Assembly: GCA_964016885.1 (NCBI GenBank)
Contig: OZ024757.1
Location: 5,270,001 to 5,334,000, forward strand
DNA: 64,000 nt
Source: Eledone cirrhosa
Taxonomy: Eukaryota
Reading direction: 5' to 3'
The notes beneath the pieces are model-generated. The model saw only the letters and a list, made by a program, of their open reading frames with translations, ran no database searches and was not told the DNA's origin. Position numbers and translations under genes: made by a program. Within the stretch, counting starts at the first letter, position 1. Each line of letters begins with the position of its first letter. This document shows positions 3,651-19,404 of the stretch, in pieces.

Positions 3651-3716
3651 TATTTTATCTGATGAGAACGCAGATATCATCCTATGATGATATTAGTTTT
3701 TGAAATGTGCATAATA
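3651..3716 (+). ncRNA. Degenerate type I hammerhead ribozyme-like motif
   Basis: CTGATGA (3659-3665), stem II atatcatc/gatgatat, GAAA (3702-3705), minimal stem III (tgtgca), AUA site; stem I is only about 3 bp. Confidence 0.4.
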
Positions 3717-3746
3717 CTCGGAACTCTTTTAACCATCTTTTGATCT

Positions 3747-3778
<32 letters not shown>

Positions 3779-5506
3779 TTACATGAGTGTGTGTGTCTAT
3801 ATATATATATTATATATATATATATATGGTTCCAATATATATCAATACTACATTTCCTTAACTTTACAATAAGTTAGGCATCATGTGTTTTGTGGCGTTT
3901 TTATTTTTATTTTTTTTTTTTTTGCCTTATGGGCATATTATACCTTTTTAGCTAATAGTGTAATACATCCCAAATATTTTAGTGTCTGAATAGAGAGAAT
4001 TACTTGCTTATGTAATAATTTCTAATCTGTTATGGCTTGACTAATAATAAAGATTTAATGTGAGTTAGTAACATTTCAAATTGCTGAGCATGGTGATAGC
4101 ACATTTGGAGGATGACTAGAGATATAAGGAAACAAGAGTTAAAACCTTTTTAATTGTAATTTATTTTTGATTATTTCAAAAAAGAATTTGTTGGGATTTT
4201 ATTTATTTTATTCTTTATTTAAAAAAAGTTTCCAATATATATATTTTTATTTCTTTTAAAAAAAATATTTAAAAAAAATATTTAAAAAAAATTTTAATAT
4301 GCAAAGCACATTAGCAATGATTATCATAAGAAAGGGGGGAGGGGAACACAGAAAGGAAGTTACAAAACAACTACAATTAGACTGAGCAATTGGGGGGCTA
4401 TGCATGTGTGTGTGTGTGTGTATATATGGTATTAGCTGTATAAAAGGTTTCTTTTATTAAATATAATCAGGAGTTGATGTCTAGTCTACTAACAGACAGA
4501 CTGTATTATTTTAACAATTGATATAAAAATGTTTCCATGATTTTCCAGTAAAACAATATTATGTGTTAGTAAGAGATTTTTTTTTCTTTTTTCAAAATAC
4601 TGTAAACTACAAAATCAATATTTTGTATGATATAATTTGTTTTATTTTATTTTTATATGTAGGTGGGGGGATTAATATAAAGAAAACATAATGCCATGCT
4701 TAATATGAATGATTTAAACCAAAAACAAAAAAAAAAGTTTATCTAATTAAACTATCTATTTAGTTTACATAAATTAAAAATATTTGCAAGACATTTCTAC
4801 TTTCTGTTTGTGTAACATGAACTTTCATCTTTTAAGACTTTCGGGCTTTGGTTTGGAATAATATCTCACAAAATGAATTTTCACATTAACATATGCAATT
4901 GTAAATAAAATAAAAAATAAATAAAAAAAGAAAAAGAAAAAACTACTATACAATTAACATATTTACAAGTGTGAAAGATGCTGTTTTTTTTCTTAAAATG
5001 AGTCTTGAAAATTTACCATGCATCCGAGAAGACGAAGGTTGCATTTTTCTAAATCAATTTTAACCAATGGGGAATGTTCCCCTATAGAAAGGAATTTAAT
5101 AATAAAGTAGAAGAGAAGATAGTATAATAAAATATATGATCCTGACCACAGGTTTGTACATGAAAAGTTCCACTCCAAGGTGCAAGCCAGGTCATGGTGT
5201 TTTTGTAGAAGACAAGAAGTCACCCATGCATGCTAATCTTCTCTACACATCACTGATGTTATCTAAGAGAAAGGCAAAGATTGATTCAGCTTGGCACCAG
5301 TGTCATCATAACTCATCTTTACCACCCATGTGGACTGGAGTAACATGAAATAAAGTGTCTTGCTCAAGGACAACACACTTCTCATCACAATCTTACGATA
5401 GTGATGAGCCCAACACACTAACCATTAATCCATGACTTTAAAGGAAATGAATGTTTCTCTTTGTTGAATATAAGTCACCAATTTAGCGGAGAAGTATTTA
5501 GAGAGT

Positions 5507-5938
5507 TGTAATGTCGCCACGAGGAACCAGGTTAGGTAGAAAGATATGATAGGAAATATCGACAACGACTTTAGCTTGGTTTTACATTATTTATTAACAA
5601 CGGTTAAGAAGTGAATTAAGCTGGCATGCCAAGAGAAATGAAATAATTCAATTAAGATTACAAGAGAAAATACGGGCGACTGGCTGAAGGGGTTTTTGAC
5701 CAGTCTCGTAGGTAATGTTTTGTCGTTACATATTGTTTGTGCTTTCACGGCGCAAGAAAAATGGTTGTTTACCTTAGCACGGTCGAAGCTGCGAGTGATA
5801 GCGTCCTCAAATCTTTGCGGGCTATTTCTCCCTCAGAAAGCGTAGGGATACATCCTCTTCTACTGGCGCTGATTGGCTGAGCTGAGCCACATCACGCACA
5901 GAGAATGTATGTGAGCCCGCGGAATGTAGGCCACTACA
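5507..5938 (-). mobile_element. Probable solo LTR
   Basis: CpG-rich 432-bp island with TGTA...TACA ends, plus CCAAT and AATAAA on the minus strand; no TSD found. Confidence 0.4.
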
Positions 5939-6159
5939 ACTTCATACTATATTTTAATGATAATTTTTCTTCATTTATTTTAAATAAATTATCAAAACGT
6001 ATTAAAAAATTTATAAAACAAGAAAAAAAAAATACCTCATTACAAAACCTCATTCCTTTATTGGGAGATAACTCAAACTAAAGGTAATTTATAAAAATAT
6101 TAATTTTAACAGCGTTATCAAGTAACAAAGGAAGAGGTAAAAGTAAAAGTACAAAAGCA

Positions 6160-6420
6160 GACTATAAGGTACCAACAGGTTCTATAAGTCACTAACTATA
6201 AGGTACCAACAGTAACTATATATCACTAAATCACTAACCAATAGGTACCAACAGTAACTATATATCACTAAATCACTAACCAATAGGTACCAACAGTAAC
6301 TATATATCACTAAATCTCTAAGTATAAGGTACCAACAGTAACTATATATCACTAAATCACTAACTATAAGGGATCAACAATAATATATTACTAAGTCACT
6401 AACTAGAACAGAAACTATAA
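6160..6420. repeat. Minisatellite, about 43-bp unit
   Basis: Recurrent aggtaccaacagtaactatatatcactaaatcactaa. Confidence 0.8.
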
Positions 6421-6430
6421 ATCAAAGTCA

Positions 6431-6822
6431 TTATCTATATGTGGATTGGCAGTATCGGTAGAGAGTCGGACGCCATGCTTTCCAGCATAGTTACGTCCCT
6501 TTACGATCTGAGTTCAAATCCCGCCGAGGTTGATTTGCCTTTCATCCTTACGGGGTCGATAAAATAAAGTACCAGTAATTCACTGGGTAATTGCTGGCCT
6601 TGTGCCTAAAGTAGAAACAATTATCTATATGTGGATTGGCAGTATCGGTAGAGGGTCGGACGCCATGCTTTCCAGCATAGTTACGTCCCTTTACGATCTG
6701 AGTTCAAATCCCGCCGAGGTTGATTTGCCTTTCATCCTTACGGGGTCGATAAAATAAAGTACCAGTAATGCACTGGGTAATTGTTGGCCTTGTGCCTAAA
6801 GTAGAAACAATTATCTATATGT
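6431..6822 (+). mobile_element. Head-to-tail dimer of SINE family A
   Basis: Two near-identical 190-bp units; ttatctatatgt occurs at 6431, 6621 and 6811. Confidence 0.9.
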
Positions 6823-6965
6823 ATTTGTAAAATCTATGAAAATGCTGAGACCTTATGTGGTGGTTGGGGGGGGGGGTGTTAAGTCAAAATTGGGATGCGT
6901 CTTCGAGCTTGTAGAATCTTGAAAGTCAGAGCATCTTCAATACCAGGAAATATGGTAAGTAGCAG

Positions 6966-6967
6966 TA

Positions 6968-7058
<91 letters not shown>
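6966..7058. repeat. Compound microsatellite (GTA)n(ATA)n
   Basis: Direct reading of the sequence. Confidence 0.95.
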
Positions 7059-7059
<1 letters not shown>

Positions 7060-7347
7060 TTAACAGTAACAATAATATGTTTGAGATTATAAAATAAAAC
7101 AAAATGAAAAAAAATTAATGGAATCACAAATGAGAAATGTTGAAGAAATACATGTTGCACAATCTCTTGGTACCATTTTAATCCCCAATATTGGTCCCTT
7201 TTCTCAGTTACGTAAGGAAAATGAATGTGTTATGCAGTTAATATTAATGACATTCAAATAATTTTTTTAAAAAACGTTTAACTTAACATTATTAAGTGTA
7301 TGGATGTAATATTGCTTTGCTAATGCCTGTGTGATTTACAACTAACA

Positions 7348-7406
<59 letters not shown>

Positions 7407-7446
7407 GATATTAAACAAATGGAAACTATATTTATAAAACCATATT

Positions 7447-7512
7447 TATTTCATTATACATATTTCAGGGATACCATATTAAAAATATGGCATGTCTTCG
7501 TCAGATAAAATA
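7447..7512 (-). ncRNA. Type I hammerhead ribozyme (inverted copy, one extra stem II mismatch)
   Basis: Reverse complement reads tattttat-CTGACGA-agacatgccatatt-ttt-aatatggtatccct-GAAA-tatgt-ATA-atgaaata. Confidence 0.65.
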
Positions 7513-9039
7513 CAATATATAAACAGTTTTATAAATAATTTTGACGTACCATATTATAAGCGACCATTATATTAGGAAGCTGTCTGGATAATGAATTGTT
7601 TATAATTATTTAGTTATAGTGTTAAGCACAGTTAGAAGAAAGACGGAGAGAAAGAAACGGAGAGAAAGAAAAGGAGAGAGAGAAAAAATATATAAATAGA
7701 TAGGAGAAAGAAATAAGAGAGGCAAACGAAAGCAACAGATAAATAATTCCCCATACATATCGAGAAACTCAAGAGAGAGGGAGTCCTATATAGAGAGAGA
7801 AGGATAATAATTATTTAGTTATAGTGTTAAGCACAGATAGAAAAAAGACGGAGAGAAAGAAAAAACGTAGATAAAGAAAAAAGAAAAAACGGAGAGAGAG
7901 AGGGGAGAGGAGAAAAAAACAGAGAGAGAGAGAATATAAATAGATAAGAGGAAGTGAAAAAGAAACAAGAGAGAAATAAGAGAGGCAAACGAAAACGACA
8001 GATACATAATAATTCATCATACATAAAGATAAACTCAAGAGAGAGGAGAAAGTGCTATATATAGAGAGAAGGATACAGTTACATCTTTACGTCATGTCAT
8101 ATCAATTTGAATTATCAATTCATATGAAAAGGATAATAAAAATGCAAATATCAATATTCATGAATGAGACATAGATATATATAATATGAGAAAATAACAT
8201 TGTTCAATAATGACCATATGTTTAGTTTAAAACTCTGAGGTTAATATACCAAAAACTGAGATAAAACCTTCAAAAAATTACCCTATTTATAAAAATACGG
8301 AAATATATATGTATATATATATACACGTATATGTACTTCCTGAAAAAAGAAAAAAGAGAAAATTATGTCTAACTCTAGTCAATAATATAGACATACATAT
8401 GACTTCACTTGATCAACTCTATAATTTCTTGTGTCATAAAAAAATGTCTTGTGTTATAAAAATTTCACTGTATATATACATAAAATATACGATTAATATT
8501 CATGTCCTCACATATATGATTACCGTTCATGTATTTAATATTATGCATATCTGTAACATATACAGAACCATACCTAAATATATATATATATATGTATATA
8601 TAAAATATCTGCGTGAGTTTTCCAGCATCTTTACGCACATATACAGACACATGAACACATAAAATAAACTCTATAAACTTTCTATATGCATGTTAATACA
8701 CATATGGCCTTTGTATAGAGATAATCAAATATCAATATATCAGCACAGAAACATCAAAACATTAAAATACTTTCAACACACTATAGAGTATCTCAGGCCA
8801 AAAACAATATGCTTCATATATTTACTACAGAAATCTATCCTTCCTATATTTCAAACAATATATTGCAAAGTTAGTTAGAAGCTATTAGAGTAAAAAACAA
8901 ATAAAAAACAAAAATTATTTAACAAAAATTATTAAAAAGATTTAGAAGACCCAGTGATTCTACGGATGCCCTTATATTTAGTATAGAAATTTATCTTGCG
9001 TAAAATGTATTTAATACATTGGGAGCATATACATTTTAG

Positions 9040-9307
9040 AGTAGTTTATTACAAAAAATCCTCAACTTCGCTATCAAGCCTACTCTGGCAACTTAAACGA
9101 GATAATGTTAAGTATTCGATGTTTTGGAATATTGTCTCAAAAGGGATTCCTTTTAATTCCTCATCAGAGACATGTGATCTCTGTGTGGAGGAGGTATTCT
9201 TTATATTAAAGTCCAAAAATTTCCTTAATTTAAGGAGCAATTTATTCAGTTGCTGCAGACATAGATTGAACTCAACGTTTAAATATAAATATAAATTTAA
9301 AATGTAG
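9040..9307 (+). pseudogene. C-terminal part of a Penelope-like GIY-YIG endonuclease
   Basis: STSLSSLLWQLK...WNIVSKGIPFNSSSETCDLCVEE...LNLRSNLFSCCRH resembles the PLE endonuclease tail pattern (S.LS..IW.LK...C.LC..E...LN.R.E...CRH), recognised from memory. Confidence 0.7.
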
Positions 9308-9826
9308 TATAATTAATTAAGAAATTTAGTTAATATATGAAACCTGACGATAAATCATTTGATTCCTTCACCTTTTTCTTTTTAAACCTTCTTCCTAAAT
9401 ATAAACAAAGATGTAATAAACTACTCTAAATTTTACGCAAGATAAATTTCTATACTAAATATAAGGGCATCCGTAGAATCACTGGGTCTTCTAAATCTTT
9501 TAAATAATTTTTATCTTTTAAATAATTATTATCCTTCTCTCTATATATAGGACTCCCTCTCTCTTGAGTTTCTCTATATGTATGGGGAATTATTATTTAT
9601 CTGTTGCTTTCGTTTGCCACTCTTATTTCTTTCTCCTATCTATTTATATATTTTTACTCTCTCTCCTTTTCTTTCTCTCCGTTTCTTTCTCTCCGTCTTT
9701 CTTCTAACTGTACTTAACACTATAACTAAATAATTATAAACAATTCATTATCCAGACAGCTTCCTAATATAATGGTCGCTTATAACATGGTACGTCAAAA
9801 TTATTTATAAAACTGTTTATATATTG

Positions 9827-9892
9827 TATTTTATCTGACGAAGGCATGCCATATTTTTAATATGGTATCCCTGAAATATGTATAATGAAATA
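9827..9892 (+). ncRNA. Type I hammerhead ribozyme with minimal stem III
   Basis: Stem I tattttat(9827-34)/atgaaata(9885-92); CTGACGA 9835-41; 14-bp stem II 9842-72 with one mismatch; GAAA 9873-76; self-complementary atatgtat; predicted cleavage after A9884. Confidence 0.75.
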
Positions 9893-10020
9893 AATATGGT
9901 TTTATAAATATAGTTTCCATTTGTTTAATATCGTATATCTACTCCAAAAACTTGTCGAGTGCTTTATATCAGTTATAAAATATTTACTTGTTGTAACCCA
10001 ACAATTTTAAATAAAACTTT

Positions 10021-10055
<35 letters not shown>

Positions 10056-10261
10056 GAAAAACAAAAACATTTGAGTCACATTTGAAAAAGGCAAGTTGTA
10101 AATGCATCAATCAACAATGCTTCGAGATTTGCCAAAATTCATCCCTGCTTGAGATGCACCTTTGTTAGAGCCCATTTGGAGACTAATGATGTTGCTGCCA
10201 GCCAGTAACTGTTCTTCAGTGAAAAATTGTGCATTTTTTTCTGCTTCTTTAGGTCCTAAGC

Positions 10262-10320
10262 ATGGCCCAGGTTACCCCTTCATACGTGCCTAGTAGTAGA
10301 AAAATATTAGCATTTCAAAT
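10262..10320 (+). CDS. Candidate first coding exon of the RING/death-domain gene (MAQVTPSYVPSSRKILAFQ)
   Basis: Polypyrimidine-TAG acceptor at 10252, agcATGG start context, GTAAGA donor at 10321; phase 2 matches the RING exon. No homology support. Confidence 0.3.
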
Positions 10321-10791
10321 GTAAGATATAAAGAAGATACATGACATTTTTTTAAGTTCATCATATTGAGATTTTTTTAAGCTTAACCCTTTTCTTACAA
10401 TATTTCTAATGAAGTTCACTGACTACGATTGATTTTCAAATAATTTTTAGAAATAATCAAGAATTTGGAGCGACTTGAAAATAACTAACTTCCTCATTAT
10501 TAAATTGATGTTCATAACATAAGTTAAAAAGTTCTTTCATAGAATTATGATGAAAGGTTTCATGATCATCATCGTCGTTTAACATCCATCTTCCACGCTA
10601 GCATTTGGTTTATAGATAAATATAAATTTTCTAAAATAGTTTAACAGAACCAGAACATGTTTTGAGCAGTTTGATATAAAAAAAGGTGAATTCATAAATA
10701 GTAATCAGTAATGTGTCACAAAATTTATCTAAAATAAACATTATTTATTGAAAACATTGAATTAAAATTAACTCTGTATCATCATGATGTG

Positions 10792-10905
10792 AAGGCACAT
10801 GGCTTAGTGGTTGGATTTGCAATCATGAGGTTGTGAGTTCAATTCTCAGACCGGGTGATCTGTTGTGTCCTTGAACAAGACATTATTTCACGTTGCTCCT
10901 TCTGC
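10792..10905 (+). mobile_element. tRNA-derived SINE family B (CORE-like)
   Basis: TGGCTTAGTGG A box, GAGTTCAATTC B box, ccttgaacaagaca core-like segment. Other copies near 950(-), 5340(-), 17305, 43376, 46652 and 55630(-). Confidence 0.7.
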
Positions 10906-12189
10906 CAGGAGTTGCAACCAGTATCAACAATGGAAAAATGTAAAAACCAATGGAAACATTGTTTCCTTGGTCCCATTTGATGAGGTCCACCGCACTTGGC
11001 AAGCGAATGAGGTCTGGGATCTTGATCGATCGGAGTGAGAGCGATCATCATTATTGCTCAACTACAGTAAGAGACAGTCACAATCGTCCTCCACCAACTG
11101 CAGCTTTTTATAATCCCTTGTGGTCCTGTAGTCAAATTCTTGATTATTTTCAAAATAACTTGAAAACCATGGGCAATGTCTTTCATTAGAAATATACTAA
11201 CTGAAGGGTTAAACCAGGTAACAGATTAAGTCTATCACCTGATTTGAGGGAAATTTGTCTTTAATTTTTAGCATGTAGAGTGACCACATAGAGCCTCCTG
11301 TGTTAGCAGTCTCATTAGAAACATGGAAACTAAAGGTTTAGATCTCTCCAAATTCTTGTTTTTTTTTTTTTTTTCAAAATTATTTGAAATCAAAGGCACA
11401 GTACTTCATTGAAAATATGATTAACAAAAAAAGTTAAAAAACCAAATTTTAAAAAAAAATGGGACGATGAAGGGGGAGGGTTAGAAATAACGGAAAATAA
11501 TAAAATATTAATTAAACATATTTACATTTCTCCCTAAAGCATGTAGGGTATTAACAACCTGTAACATATTTACTTTGTCATAAAGGTCAACAGTCTGGAA
11601 GAGGGCATTCTTCATCACACCATAGTCTTCAGTGGCTTTTAGAAAGTTTGCGATATTCTCCATCATATAAAAGGCAGATTTCTTATCATTTATTTTTGGG
11701 CTAATTAGTTCATTAATCTGTTAAGAAAATTAAATTAATTAATAATAAATGAATAAATTCAACAAGTTAAGGTTAGTGGGAGAATTGAAGGAAGATATCT
11801 CTGGACCTCTTTGATACCAAACTGCCTGAAACCACCCCTGGTTCGATAATAAAAAGCTGTGTTATTTTAAAGTACTAGGATTTTTTTCAACATGCTGACG
11901 TGTATGTGTATATGTGTGTGTGTGTGTACGTGCATATGCATACATTTATATGTATGAGTATATAAATATAAACACAAGAATACACTCACAGGCATACATT
12001 CACACAAACATACACAAACACTCACACACAGCATATCAAATGGAACACCAGTGACCGTTTTGCTATAGTTTTTCACCATCCTTCTTTCCTTTTACACACA
12101 CATGTGTGTGTATGTGTGTGAGACAGAAGTCGCTGAAATTTATATATAGAATGACATTTATCTAAAAGGAAAAATCAAACATTCCATTC

Positions 12190-15100
12190 ATCATCATCAT
12201 CATCATCATCGTTTAACGTCCATTTTCCACGCTAGCATGGGTTAGACGGGAGTTGTCCCATTTGAGGCAAGGCTGGTCGGGTAACCGTCTCCTCATATAG
12301 GACTATCTGGAAGGTTTTCTACGGCTGGATGCCCTTCCTAACACCAACCACATTTACTGCGTGGAACTGGGAACTTTTTACCGTGTTACCTACACGGCCA
12401 CATTACAGTGTGGACTGTGTGTATTTTTGTCGTGACACCTACACGATATCGAGCTCATTTTCTAGTGCTGTTGGTGGGAGTGGGAGGATAGGGTAGGGGT
12501 AGTGGACTGGGGTGTATATTTGGTCAAGAGGTGCCTACTGACTGTAGGTTTCACTTTGTACATAGGCAAGGCGGGTCTTCTGTATTTCATCCCAGGTTTT
12601 TCTGCGTCTACCTACTCCGTAACTACCTTCAATTTTGATCGCCCTACTGTTTTTTATGCAGCTGTCGTCTTTCATGCGCATCACGTGACCATACCAACGT
12701 AGTCTTCTCTCAAGTAAACAGCATCTGATCCCTCTTATTCCTAATTTGTCACTTAGTTCATTTATGCTTTGCTGTTCACGTATATTACTATTACACATCC
12801 AACGGAGCATGCATGCTTCATTCCTTTCCAGTCTACGCAGGTCCTCTGCACGTAATGCCCATGTCTCACTGCCATGTAGCATTGCTGTTCATATACAAGT
12901 ACATACAATATGCCTTTCATTTTTAGAGAGCAACCTTTTGTGGCCAACAGCGGTATAAGCTCTCTGAACTTTTTCCATCTCGTTCTGACTGGCTACTGTA
13001 CTTTCAGAACACCCTCCACCACTGCTGATTTCGTCACCCAGGTAACGGAAAGTGTCTAGTATTTCTACAGAACCATCTGGGCAATAGAAGGAGCTAGTAT
13101 CCTTTGGACACTTGCTACCTATTGCACCTGAGCATCAGCCACATATAAAGTCTACGTTCTTAGATAGTTTACCTGTGATGCCCACTACATCTTTTATGTA
13201 CCCATACTTTGCATTTGGGACATAAAATGGAATTTCTACCTACTCCTTTCCTACACACTGAGCATGGCCATTTCCCTGAGGGCACCTGTGCCCTATTTTC
13301 CTTTCTACAAACTAGAACTTTCGTCTTAGACAAGTTAACTTTAAGGCCTTTTGATTCTAGGCCATGCTTCCATGTTTGGAATTTCTTCTCTAGTTCAGCC
13401 ATTAATTTAGCTATGAGTGTTAGATCATCAGCGTATAGGAGTTCCCATGGGCAGCCGGACTTAAACTCCTCTGTTATAGCCTGAAGGGCAATAATAAATA
13501 AGAGGGGGCTAAGGACAGAGCCTTGATGAATGCCAACTTTTACATTAAATTCTTAACAATATTCATTGTTAATTCTAACCTTACTGACTGTTTCATTATA
13601 CATAGGTTGTATAGGTCTCACAAGCCATTCATCTACACCTAGTTTTCTGAGAGCCCACCAGATAATTGAGCGGGGGACTCTGTCAAAAGCTTTCTCCAGA
13701 TCTACAAAAGCTAAGTAGAGAGGTTTACTTTTAGCTAGGTACTTCTCTTGTAGTTGTCATACAAAGAAAAGAGCGTCTGTGGTACTTTTACCTGGCACAA
13801 ACCCAAACTGCATTTCATCTAGATCAATTCGCTCTCTGATTAGTTACGCTATAACTCTTTCTGTGACCTTCATGACCTGGTCAACTAACTTAATGCCTCT
13901 ATAGTTTCCCCTATCTTGTAGCAGTTTATAATGATGCTGCTACGCCAGTCTTTTGGTATTACCCCATTCTGTATTACTTGGTTAAGTATACGGGTGATCA
14001 TAGTGTGTCGCACCATACCAGATGCCTTCAACATCTCAGCAACTATCTCCGAAAACCCAGCTGCCTTGCCTGTCTTCATATCTTTGATTGCCTTACTTAT
14101 TATACTACCTTTAACTTGCACCGCTGGTCCTTCTATTGGATCGATTTGGGGCAGACTTTCTTTTTCCCATTTATTCTCCTCATTTAATAGTCTCTCGTAG
14201 GTGACACTTCCTGGCTATCTTCTTATTAGTATCAGTGAGCGCAAGTACACCATTATCATTACAGACACACTTATCTCCGACAATATCTCAGTTTTCATTG
14301 ACACATTGTCGAGCAATCCTGAACACCTCACGTTCTTGGTCCTCACGTTGTAGAACATGCTTGAACTTTCTATCCTCTGCTACCCTTTTTGCAAGGTACA
14401 CTTGTCTCCTAGCTTCTCTCCTGGCCACTTGATAGTGCTCTCTACTTCCCCCATCTTGCCATACTTTCCAAGCCTGCTTTTTGGCCTTGATTGTCTCTTC
14501 CACTTACTGTTCCACCACCAAGTTACTCTTCTCCTGCCAATAGGTCTGCTCCAGCGACAGATTTCATCCGTTGCTTTCAGCAGGTTCACTTTCAGGAATT
14601 CCCACTGTTCCTCTATATCGCACGTCTCTAATTGCTCTTCCTTATTGTCAAAGGCATCAAGTAATAAACTTTTAAATTTATCACTAGCTGTGGGGTCCTT
14701 TAACTTTCATATTTTTCTCCTTAGGGTAGTCCTCCTCTGTCGTCGAGTACGTCTATTCCTGACTATGAGGTCACTAAGTACTAGGCTATGTTGGGAGGTG
14801 CATTCTTCACGGGGGAGGGATTTTGTGTTTACAACAGACACTTTGTCCTGTCTTCTAGTAAGGATATAATCTATCTGGCTGGCGTGTTCCCCTGATGTAC
14901 AGGTGATGAAGTGGTTTGCTCGTTTTTGAAGTTTGTGTTACAGATAGTTAGGTTATTAGCATCACAAAATTCCATGATTCTGAAGCCTTCCTCATTTCTA
15001 GTACCAAACCCATAGCCTCCATTGATTCCATCATAGCCATCACTATGTTGTCCAATGTGACCATTTAGGTCACCAGCAATAATTATGCAGTCACTGTCTG

Positions 15101-17266: not shown

Positions 17267-19404
17267 GTAAGTAATTCTTTGATAGTCTGTCTGTATATTT
17301 CCATTCATGACTTAGTGGTTAGTGTGTTTGTCTCATGATCATAAGGTTCTGAGTTCAATTCCCAGGAACATATTGTACCTTTGAACAAGACACTTTATTT
17401 CATGTTACTTCAGTCTACTTAGATGGGAAAATGAGTTGTATTTGTAATTCAAAAGGCCAGCTTTGTTTCATACTTTGTTATGCTGAATCTCCCTGAGAAT
17501 TATAATAATGGTGACCGTTATTGTTACTGTAATTCAATGGTCCAGCTATATCACATACAACATATCACTGAATCTCCCTTAGAATCATGTTAAGAGAACA
17601 TATGTCTGTGGAATACTCAGCCACTCTCACTATAATACAAGATGGACTGTACCTGTAATTAAAAGGATCAGCTTGTCACACACTGTGCCATACTGGATCT
17701 CCCTGAGAATTACGCTATGTGTGTACATGTCTGTGGAATACTCAGCCATTTGCACCTTAATTACATGAGTAAACTGTTCTGTTATTCAAACAATTGGAAC
17801 ACTCATTGTTAGAACTGACAGATGTCTAAAAGACAGGTGTAACTTCTACTTCCTCAAATTTTCAGGTAGTTGGCTTCTCCCGCTACTGATGTCCACTGTA
17901 TTGATGGAGAGGGTGAGCAAAGATTTGAGAAACTATGATCTATTTATATAAGGGGTCTGTAGGAGCTAATTTATAATGTTGGGGTCATTTCATGGATCCC
18001 TTTCAGATATTTTCACTGCATTAATGTAGAGATGACTTGTTGAAGGTAGCTAATGAGGATTTGTGTAAGTGTACAGTGTTTTAGGACACCTGTTATCACT
18101 TTCCTTCTCACCTGTATAGAATAATCAGTGCTCACCGATAAGATCCTGTATCATTATGGAGGACACGTGACATGTAAATATTTGTAAATATTGCATGAAT
18201 GAAATGACATTCTGGTGAACACAGATGTATCTACTCCTATTTCATGTAGGCTATCATGAATTTCTGGCTAGGTCTTTGATAACCAGCTTGGCTGATATTA
18301 GAATTAAGAAGAAAATAAACAGAATATTTATTAGTAAAATACAGAGATGAGAGGACAGTGATGCTATATTGTAGATTTGGCATAAGTGAAAGACAAAGCT
18401 AGGAGAAAAACGTATAATCAGCTGATAGTGGAATGAGATAATTACAGCATTGTTAGAATATATAAGATGTTTTTATAGATAGAAAATATTTATAAAGTTT
18501 AACATATTTTGTTGTGAGCCTAAATACTCAGATATAACCTGATATAACAAGAAGAGAAAATATTGACTAAAGCCATTGTGATCACTAGTTGACTTCTGAT
18601 GATAGGAATGTCTGAAAATATCAAATATAGATTATAAACAGGAATAGAAAATCTTTACAGTAAAATGAAAAAAACCGGGAAATATTTTTTCAGGGTCTCA
18701 AAAGCCGAATGAGAAAGTCCTGTGGAAGGTAGGAGAACTGTTAGTGGGAAAATGGTTTGAAGTTGGTGAGTATAAGATTACAGTATCTTGTTGATTTCTA
18801 TAAAGTTTACTTTTAACTGAATTGGTAAAAATGTATAAATTAGAAGACACAATATAACTAATATTGTCTTCTAAAACAGGGAATAAAAATCTGTTGGTGT
18901 ATTGGGGTAAACATGTGAGTTAATGGGAATGTTTTTGTTTGTTTTTATAGGTTTTATAGGTTGTTTTTATAGGTTTTATAGGTTGTTATAGTTATTTAGT
19001 CTCGGGTCTGCCATTATCTGCAGATTTATAATGGAGGGTGTTCCAGGTGTGACCACCCTACATTATTCCTAGAGATTGTTACTCCTTCATTCTTCAGTCA
19101 TCTTGGTATTATGAGATGGTGTAGTCTTATTGTTATGGTTATGGTCTTCCTTTGTCCACACTCTCTATCAAAGCCTTCCTTCTCTGGAAAAAGATTTAAT
19201 ATTCACAACCATCTGTCTATTTGTTTTCTGATGAGAATAAAGTTAATCTAGCTTGTATGTCTACCTGATCAAATGACTGGCTGATATCTTGAAGTCATTT
19301 ACATCACAGAACTGTAGGAGTCTTTATCCCTCAAGCCATTCCTCTAGCCATCATGTACTCCAAAAGAGTCATCTTCGTGCTACTCAACATGTCCATTAAA
19401 TTTA

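Follow-up and report, generated by a model that had tools for sequence, protein, structure and literature searches.

A probable fossil Penelope-like element with inverted, hammerhead-bearing arms beside a transgelin/calponin-like pseudogene of Eledone cirrhosa

The window, a stretch of 64,000 nucleotides from chromosome 18 (C18) of Eledone cirrhosa, holds a remnant of a Penelope-like element (PLE) whose two arms face each other head to head between (TA)n tracts, next to two exons of a transgelin/calponin-like pseudogene on the minus strand. The features of this locus, in window positions, are as follows.

7351..7405, no strand: (TA)n target microsatellite on the left side, read from the sequence
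7403..9053, minus: left arm, nearly all of the family 3' UTR in antisense, with a tail-less pLTR end
7447..7512, minus: type I hammerhead, left copy (core start 7504; predicted cleavage after 7455, AUA)
7602..8075, minus: two diverged sub-repeats of the family 3' UTR (7602-7806 and 7807-8075; 70% identity)
9051..9053, no strand: central head-to-head junction with a 3-bp microhomology, from junction mapping
9053..9307, plus: last 84 codons and stop of a Hydra-type GIY-YIG endonuclease, by its motifs (CxxC..E..N..CxH)
9308..9937, plus: right 3' UTR and pLTR, with a 29-bp deletion near 9430 and a deletion of about 1.1 kb near 9512-9519
9827..9892, plus: right-hand type I hammerhead, with the sequence most frequent in the family (core start 9835; predicted cleavage after 9884, AUA)
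9938..10023, plus: PLE tail of about 85 nt, by comparison with full-length copies
10024..10054, no strand: (TA)n target microsatellite on the right side, read from the sequence
10107..10289, minus: last exon of the transgelin/calponin-like pseudogene, a calponin repeat (PF00402, E=1.6e-13)
11526..11717, minus: CH-domain exon of the same pseudogene (PF00307 match)

A preliminary description of the window had seen nested pairs of inverted repeats here, and the individual repeats are real: the pair of about 415 bp (7398-7817 and 9519-9941; 423 columns, 97.4%), the inner pair of 82 bp (8924-9009 and 9427-9512; 98%) and the diverged duplicate at 7815-8075 (7807-8075 against 7602-7806; 70%). Instead of being nested, however, they belong to one long inverted arm (7403-9053) facing a right arm that lacks 29 bp and about 1.1 kb, and the nested appearance is a consequence of the right-arm deletion. 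What had been taken for about 1.1 kb of extra sequence in the left arm is normal 3' UTR that the right arm has lost between AT-rich microhomologies. The left arm matches positions 1-1607 of the 3' UTR of full-length copies at about 92%, and of 11 family loci inspected, 10 have the marker motif of the sub-repeats in two copies per 3' UTR and one lacks it. At the central junction, 3,262 bp are missing relative to a paralog at 9.81 Mb on C18. Contigs from four public runs of a kind not known do not bridge this junction, which speaks neither for nor against it.

The C-terminal endonuclease fragment recognised earlier is genuine, but the 106-aa frame containing it (8987-9307) is chimeric, as its first 22 codons are antisense 3' UTR. 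The fragment proper (9053-9304, 84 aa) carries CDLC..E..N..CRH, that is, CxxC and CxH flanking a conserved E and N, and lacks the GIY, YIG and R (arginine) motifs. A 143-aa frame at 8231-8662 was ruled out as a gene, being antisense UTR, and Pfam gave nothing significant for this frame or for the 106-aa fragment. The right boundary of the element had been set at 9937; it lies at 10023, as the element continues through a tail that recurs in full-length family copies, where it follows the 5' pLTR and precedes the ORF. Contig ends from the public runs (kind not known) cluster near 9938. The element thus has one tailed and one tail-less end. Beyond its left end lie a 42-bp minisatellite (6161-6408) and a 190-bp tandem duplicate (6430-6809, 98%).

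The endonuclease part of the 106-aa frame matches the C-terminus of PLE ORFs across the genome, with 150 scored matches at 90-100% identity that were the best among 49,702 first-look candidates. Frames of 750, 749, 706 and 664 aa with a common C-terminus were found at fetched family loci, and full-length copies map onto the window, which bears out the initial reading of an RT-less PLE remnant with inverted pLTR hammerheads. A genome search for an autonomous partner sharing the pLTR had also been proposed, and such partners were recovered in the 750-aa (L081) and 749-aa (L082) frames. These two full-length ORFs contain YRDD and NIIY..YVG motifs and encode an RT followed by a C-terminal GIY-YIG endonuclease, with the RT motifs RIRWRA (RWR) and SDKTNN (DKT), no CCHH and a single C between GIY and YIG. 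The CxCX5C linker reads CNCRDRSKC in L082, while its first C is mutated in L081. Pfam returned no significant match for either of the two ORFs. In three natural full copies, 4,140-4,231 bp long, the pLTR is followed by the tail, the ORF and a 3' UTR that measures about 1.7 kb and includes two sub-repeats.

According to Craig et al. 2021 (PMC8557442), the Hydra clade of EN+ PLEs is defined by RWK-like and DKT motifs, CxCX5C, the lack of CCHH and a C-terminal CxxC and CxH. The family described here has the same set, with RWR in place of RWK, and likewise a single ORF in which the RT precedes the GIY-YIG endonuclease. It also has in common with the clade the type I hammerhead near the 3' end and (TA)n targets, as both flanks of the window element are (TA)n and nearly all ends of 31 inverted pairs and nine single insertions meet TA-rich repeats. 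By these motifs, together with database homologues that are 31-42% identical to the full-length protein (Argonauta among them), the family is assigned to the Hydra clade. The clade is described in the same source as "generally <3 kb", whereas the unit here reaches about 4.1-4.2 kb because of its long 3' UTR with sub-repeats. Hydra-1_Obim of Octopus bimaculoides, one octopus Hydra family listed there, is 2,507 bp long and has another hammerhead, the sequence of which is unlike that of the window family with its stem II of 13-14 bp. Judged by length and hammerhead, the family is therefore distinct from Hydra-1_Obim within an already known clade. Our literature searches found no publication on it, and the accessible portion of an O. 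vulgaris repeat paper (PMC13282606) makes no mention of Hydra. A PLE of the Naiad or Chlamys type, with an N-terminal endonuclease and no canonical hammerhead, was ruled out by the C-terminal endonuclease and the presence of the hammerhead.

A complete, outward-facing type I hammerhead had been claimed for each outer arm. Both motifs are real, face outward and have intact catalytic cores, and a type I structure can be drawn for each of them (stem I of 8 bp, long stem II, palindromic stem III of 2-3 bp with a self-complementary loop), but in the left copy stem II is weakened by a G-to-A change that costs it a base pair close to its foot. An Rfam scan of 5000-13000 at E<=1 gave 17 matches, all microsatellite-like and none a hammerhead, so that the call rests on motif, fold and covariation. 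The MFE folds of the isolated hammerheads (z -1.05 to -2.54) are not the active fold, and a fold of hammerhead shape is 4 kcal/mol less stable than the MFE. In the whole genome, a tight pattern of the hammerhead core has 2,837 exact matches (1,397 and 1,440) against none for the reversed control. A looser type I pattern, with a long family-specific stem II and a palindromic stem III, has 60,789 exact matches against five in the control, a number that is unsorted as to Hydra-clade membership and in which several families have the same stem I and core context. Among the first 100 of these looser matches, inspected by eye, the stem III positions that the pattern leaves free are able to pair: 15.2/16.2 was T..A in all 100 and 15.3/16.3 was A-U or G-C, in about equal numbers, in about 95.

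The type I topology and short palindromic stem III are the same as in minimal PLE hammerheads and metazoan retrozymes (PMC4209133; 10.64898/2026.07.22.740005). The element has no tandem array of sense hammerheads and is therefore not a retrozyme by the two-tandem-ribozyme criterion. A non-LTR retrozyme, in which every tandem unit has its own sense type I hammerhead, was accordingly rejected, the element having one hammerhead per strand in inverted orientation. Elsewhere in the window, a further PLE-type hammerhead with a long stem II, from a different family, lies at 3659-3720 (plus), and a loose regular expression gave more CTGANGA...GAAA matches at 18596 and 30073 (both plus). Four paralogs of the element (L031, L032, L035 and L038) retain an internal hammerhead upstream of the ORF, and in all four GAAA has become AAAA, the outer cores being intact.

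The sequence to the right of the element had been presented as a candidate host exon with the element about 300 bp upstream. It is indeed a calponin-repeat exon, but a pseudo-exon, and since it lies on the minus strand the element is located 84 bp downstream of its stop codon. The last exon has an in-frame TAA at 10274-10272, ahead of the normal stop at 10109-10107, and in-frame stops in all seven duplicates rule out a functional host exon. The CH-domain exon has an in-frame TAA in 7 of 7 copies, to which the window copy adds a 13-bp frameshift. An upstream coding exon present in four paralogs is absent from 74 kb around the window and was not found in 55 kb of sequence at 8.18 Mb or 39 kb at 9.55 Mb. 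With an in-frame TAA in each exon of all seven copies, a frameshift and a missing upstream exon, the transgelin/calponin-like gene is a pseudogene. Its intact parent gene was not found, the best other match being 74% identical and located on C9, and a PDB search with the last exon gave no match. Outside the element, the next ATTAAA occurs at 7177-7182, and the element therefore probably sits in the old 3' UTR of the pseudogene. Upstream of the CH exon, a degraded RT-like stretch of LINE type was noticed by eye at about 12600-13500 (minus).

A functional interpretation of this arrangement, as proposed at the outset, is that the locus is a special non-autonomous derivative with transcripts from either strand that both self-cleave and fold into long, ADAR-edited dsRNA, a possible extension being regulation of the host gene. 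This is very improbable, although both catalytic cores are intact and arms of 415 bp at 97.4% would give a very stable duplex if read through (the arm-arm duplex in read-through RNA is predicted at -657 kcal/mol). On the minus strand, neither AATAAA nor ATTAAA separates the host stop from the element, and a host transcript would thus run on into the PLE, but a minus-strand ATTAAA at 9929-9924 could end it before the far arm, and the host is a pseudogene whose upstream exon is missing at the window. In the predicted read-through folds of the two strands, the far arm is the pairing partner of 80/80 and 79/80 bases of the hammerhead region, and transcription reaches the complementary arm before the sense hammerhead. 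Such burial would make self-cleavage and long dsRNA mutually exclusive in read-through RNA, which leaves a derivative capable of both unsupported. In addition, each strand carries a single sense hammerhead with a minimal stem III, while PLE hammerheads of this kind are reported to need a second tandem copy and to be poor at cleavage, without monomer activity in the case tested (PMC4209133), and cleavage was not needed for insertion in vitro (PMC11167929).

In the DNA, editing left no trace of the expected kind. Polarised A-to-G change is absent in the window copy, in which the counts of A>G/G>A/T>C/C>T in three segments are 8/12/8/14, 3/0/0/1 and 1/1/7/7. A search for an ADAR signature in 528 aligned family segments, a sample with overlaps between loci and biased to near-identical copies so that hyper-edited ones could escape, flagged 13 segments, all 13 of them microsatellites, and none of the other 515. 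The window element is most likely an ordinary fossil rather than an RNA control device, and its hammerheads are most likely passive parts of the pLTRs that do nothing at this locus.

The history of this fossil can be read from its duplicates. The host exon was found exactly seven times, always on C18 (5.28, about 7.12-7.13, 7.63, 8.18, 8.97, 9.55 and 9.81 Mb; 99-100% identity), within duplicated blocks between 5.26 and 9.83 Mb that are 96-99% identical well beyond the element and occur in both orientations. All seven loci contain the PLE with the identical short-arm deletion of about 1.1 kb, and five keep most or all of the ORF, but their interiors differ. The copy at about 7.12 Mb consists of a plain inverted UTR, pLTR, tail, full ORF and short UTR; the 8.97- and 7.63-Mb copies have two full ORFs, carried by an inverted duplication which also takes in about 105 bp of host flank; those at 9.55 and 9.81 Mb have an ORF palindrome; and the window and 8.18-Mb copies have lost the centre of that palindrome. 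Removing 3,262 bp from the 9.81-Mb copy reproduces the junction of the window, and in a tree of the right flank the 9.81-Mb copy is the neighbour of the pair formed by the window and 8.18 Mb (UFBoot 98-99). In the left-flank tree, however, the 9.81-Mb copy does not group with the window, being an outlier on a long branch at a distance of 1.9%. The stem II change in the left arm is common to the window and 8.97-Mb copies and absent at 9.81 Mb. These conflicts suggest that conversion or recombination among the duplicates has blurred the succession of events. With differences of only 0.08-0.4%, the window and 8.18-Mb copies could be two haplotypes of one locus.

Could the window structure instead be the direct product of one 5'-truncated retrotransposition, cut inside the endonuclease and carrying a long inverted 3' UTR, with the ORFs of the paralogs gained later? 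Truncated inverted insertions made directly are common in this family (spans of 70-4,575 bp), and integration also creates microhomology junctions. Nevertheless, five of the seven duplicates, all alike in flanks and short-arm deletion, contain RT sequence that runs on unbroken into the short arm; the window and 8.18 Mb form a recent pair; and several independent ORF gains would be required. Together these points make this origin highly unlikely. A fold-back DNA transposon or MITE moved as a 2.6-kb unit by its terminal inverted repeats is least likely of all and largely refuted, since despite long terminal inverted repeats and several near-identical copies within 5 Mb of one chromosome, the close copies all share many kb of host flank and so moved inside duplicated blocks, the ends are asymmetric with a tail on one side only, and the interior is PLE ORF and UTR. 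Among the 150 best peptide matches and the fetched loci, the window's junction was seen only at 8.18 Mb on C18, with the same flanks, and a mobile non-autonomous PLE or MITE is not indicated by these loci.

The shared flanks and short-arm deletion, with the RT kept in five of seven duplicates, make post-insertion DNA deletion the most likely cause of RT loss. We therefore consider the locus, with high confidence, a dead, internally deleted copy of a Hydra-clade PLE in (TA)n. In the sequence of events that would account for it, the PLE endonuclease may have nicked both strands of a (TA)n tract, and the RT would have made two cDNAs from a pLTR-bearing RNA, one starting at the tail end and the other at the pLTR end, which were joined head to head. 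The right 3' UTR would then have lost 1.1 kb, after which a block of at least 15-28 kb was presumably duplicated repeatedly and recombination between the long inverted arms could have given every duplicate an interior of its own. The window and 8.18-Mb copies would share a lineage in which the RT was lost through a deletion of 3.26 kb at a microhomology of 3 bp. A derivative with internal microhomology deletions, as in the window, is known from Pen2_Av on scaffold 304 (Arkhipova et al. 2013, PMC3846280), while here the seven duplicates record successive rearrangements of one insertion.

The mirror-image layout is not peculiar to the window. In a sample made up of the first 100 of the 2,837 core matches, on C1 (first 116 Mb) and clustered with a 6-kb cut-off, 31 of 66 clusters had outward-facing outer hammerheads and none had inward-facing ones, so the layout is the family norm in about half of insertions. 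All 31 outward pairs were fetched, and a script scored 30 as one tailed with one tail-less end and one as two-tailed. One pair (L121) was cut within the hammerhead and was dropped, and another (L131), inspected by eye, is tail-less on one side with a diverged tail on the other, which gives exactly one tailed end in 30/30 informative pairs (29 by script and L131 by eye). The arms differ by at least 30 nt in 20 of the 29 clean pairs, and the longer arm carries the tail in 10 of these 20. Nine of the 31 pairs (L128, L129, L131, L133, L135-L138 and L140; C1) span 161-187 bp with differing palindromic centres, which points to truncation occurring preferentially in a zone some 70-80 nt upstream of the hammerhead and not to a single amplified mini-element.

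Head-to-head arms with a tail at one end are likewise described for inverted-pLTR insertions of EN+ PLEs (PMC3846280; PMC8557442, including its Fig. 2 legend), and Penelope-13_HM is listed with an inverted 5'-truncated copy (PMC8557442). The one-tail pattern was thus known qualitatively, and the count of 30/30 is what is added here. Published EN+ PLE tails measure 30-40 nt (PMC3846280), in contrast to about 85 nt in this family. Two RT start sites delimiting a tail have been demonstrated in vitro with the Poseidon element PAc of Anolis, the copies of which likewise terminate at two fixed positions with the tail lying between them (Frangieh et al. 2024, PMC11167929). In that system the tail is ORF and the start site showed no difference between strands, whereas here the tail is 5' leader and the two ends of one insertion always differ.

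Perhaps each inverted insertion is one coupled event, in which the two nicked strands prime at different RNA start sites, separated by about 85 nt, and the longer arm may come from either of the cDNAs; this explanation is tentative, with a chance of being right that falls just short of even. Independent choice of start sites would yield one-tailed pairs in at most half of cases. If coupled priming is true, the 30/30 rule and the 10/20 split of the longer arm would eliminate two alternatives, independent priming and the plain folding back of a tailed first strand, and the seven duplicates would also document palindrome collapse as a natural time series. The family numbers thousands of copies in Eledone cirrhosa, unlike the Hydra elements described in PMC8557442, and Hydra-type PLEs, so far described from few families, seem to be very abundant in this genome (2,837 cores; 49,702 candidates). 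Such a large, young and countable set of insertions offers material for testing the still unresolved models of PLE integration.
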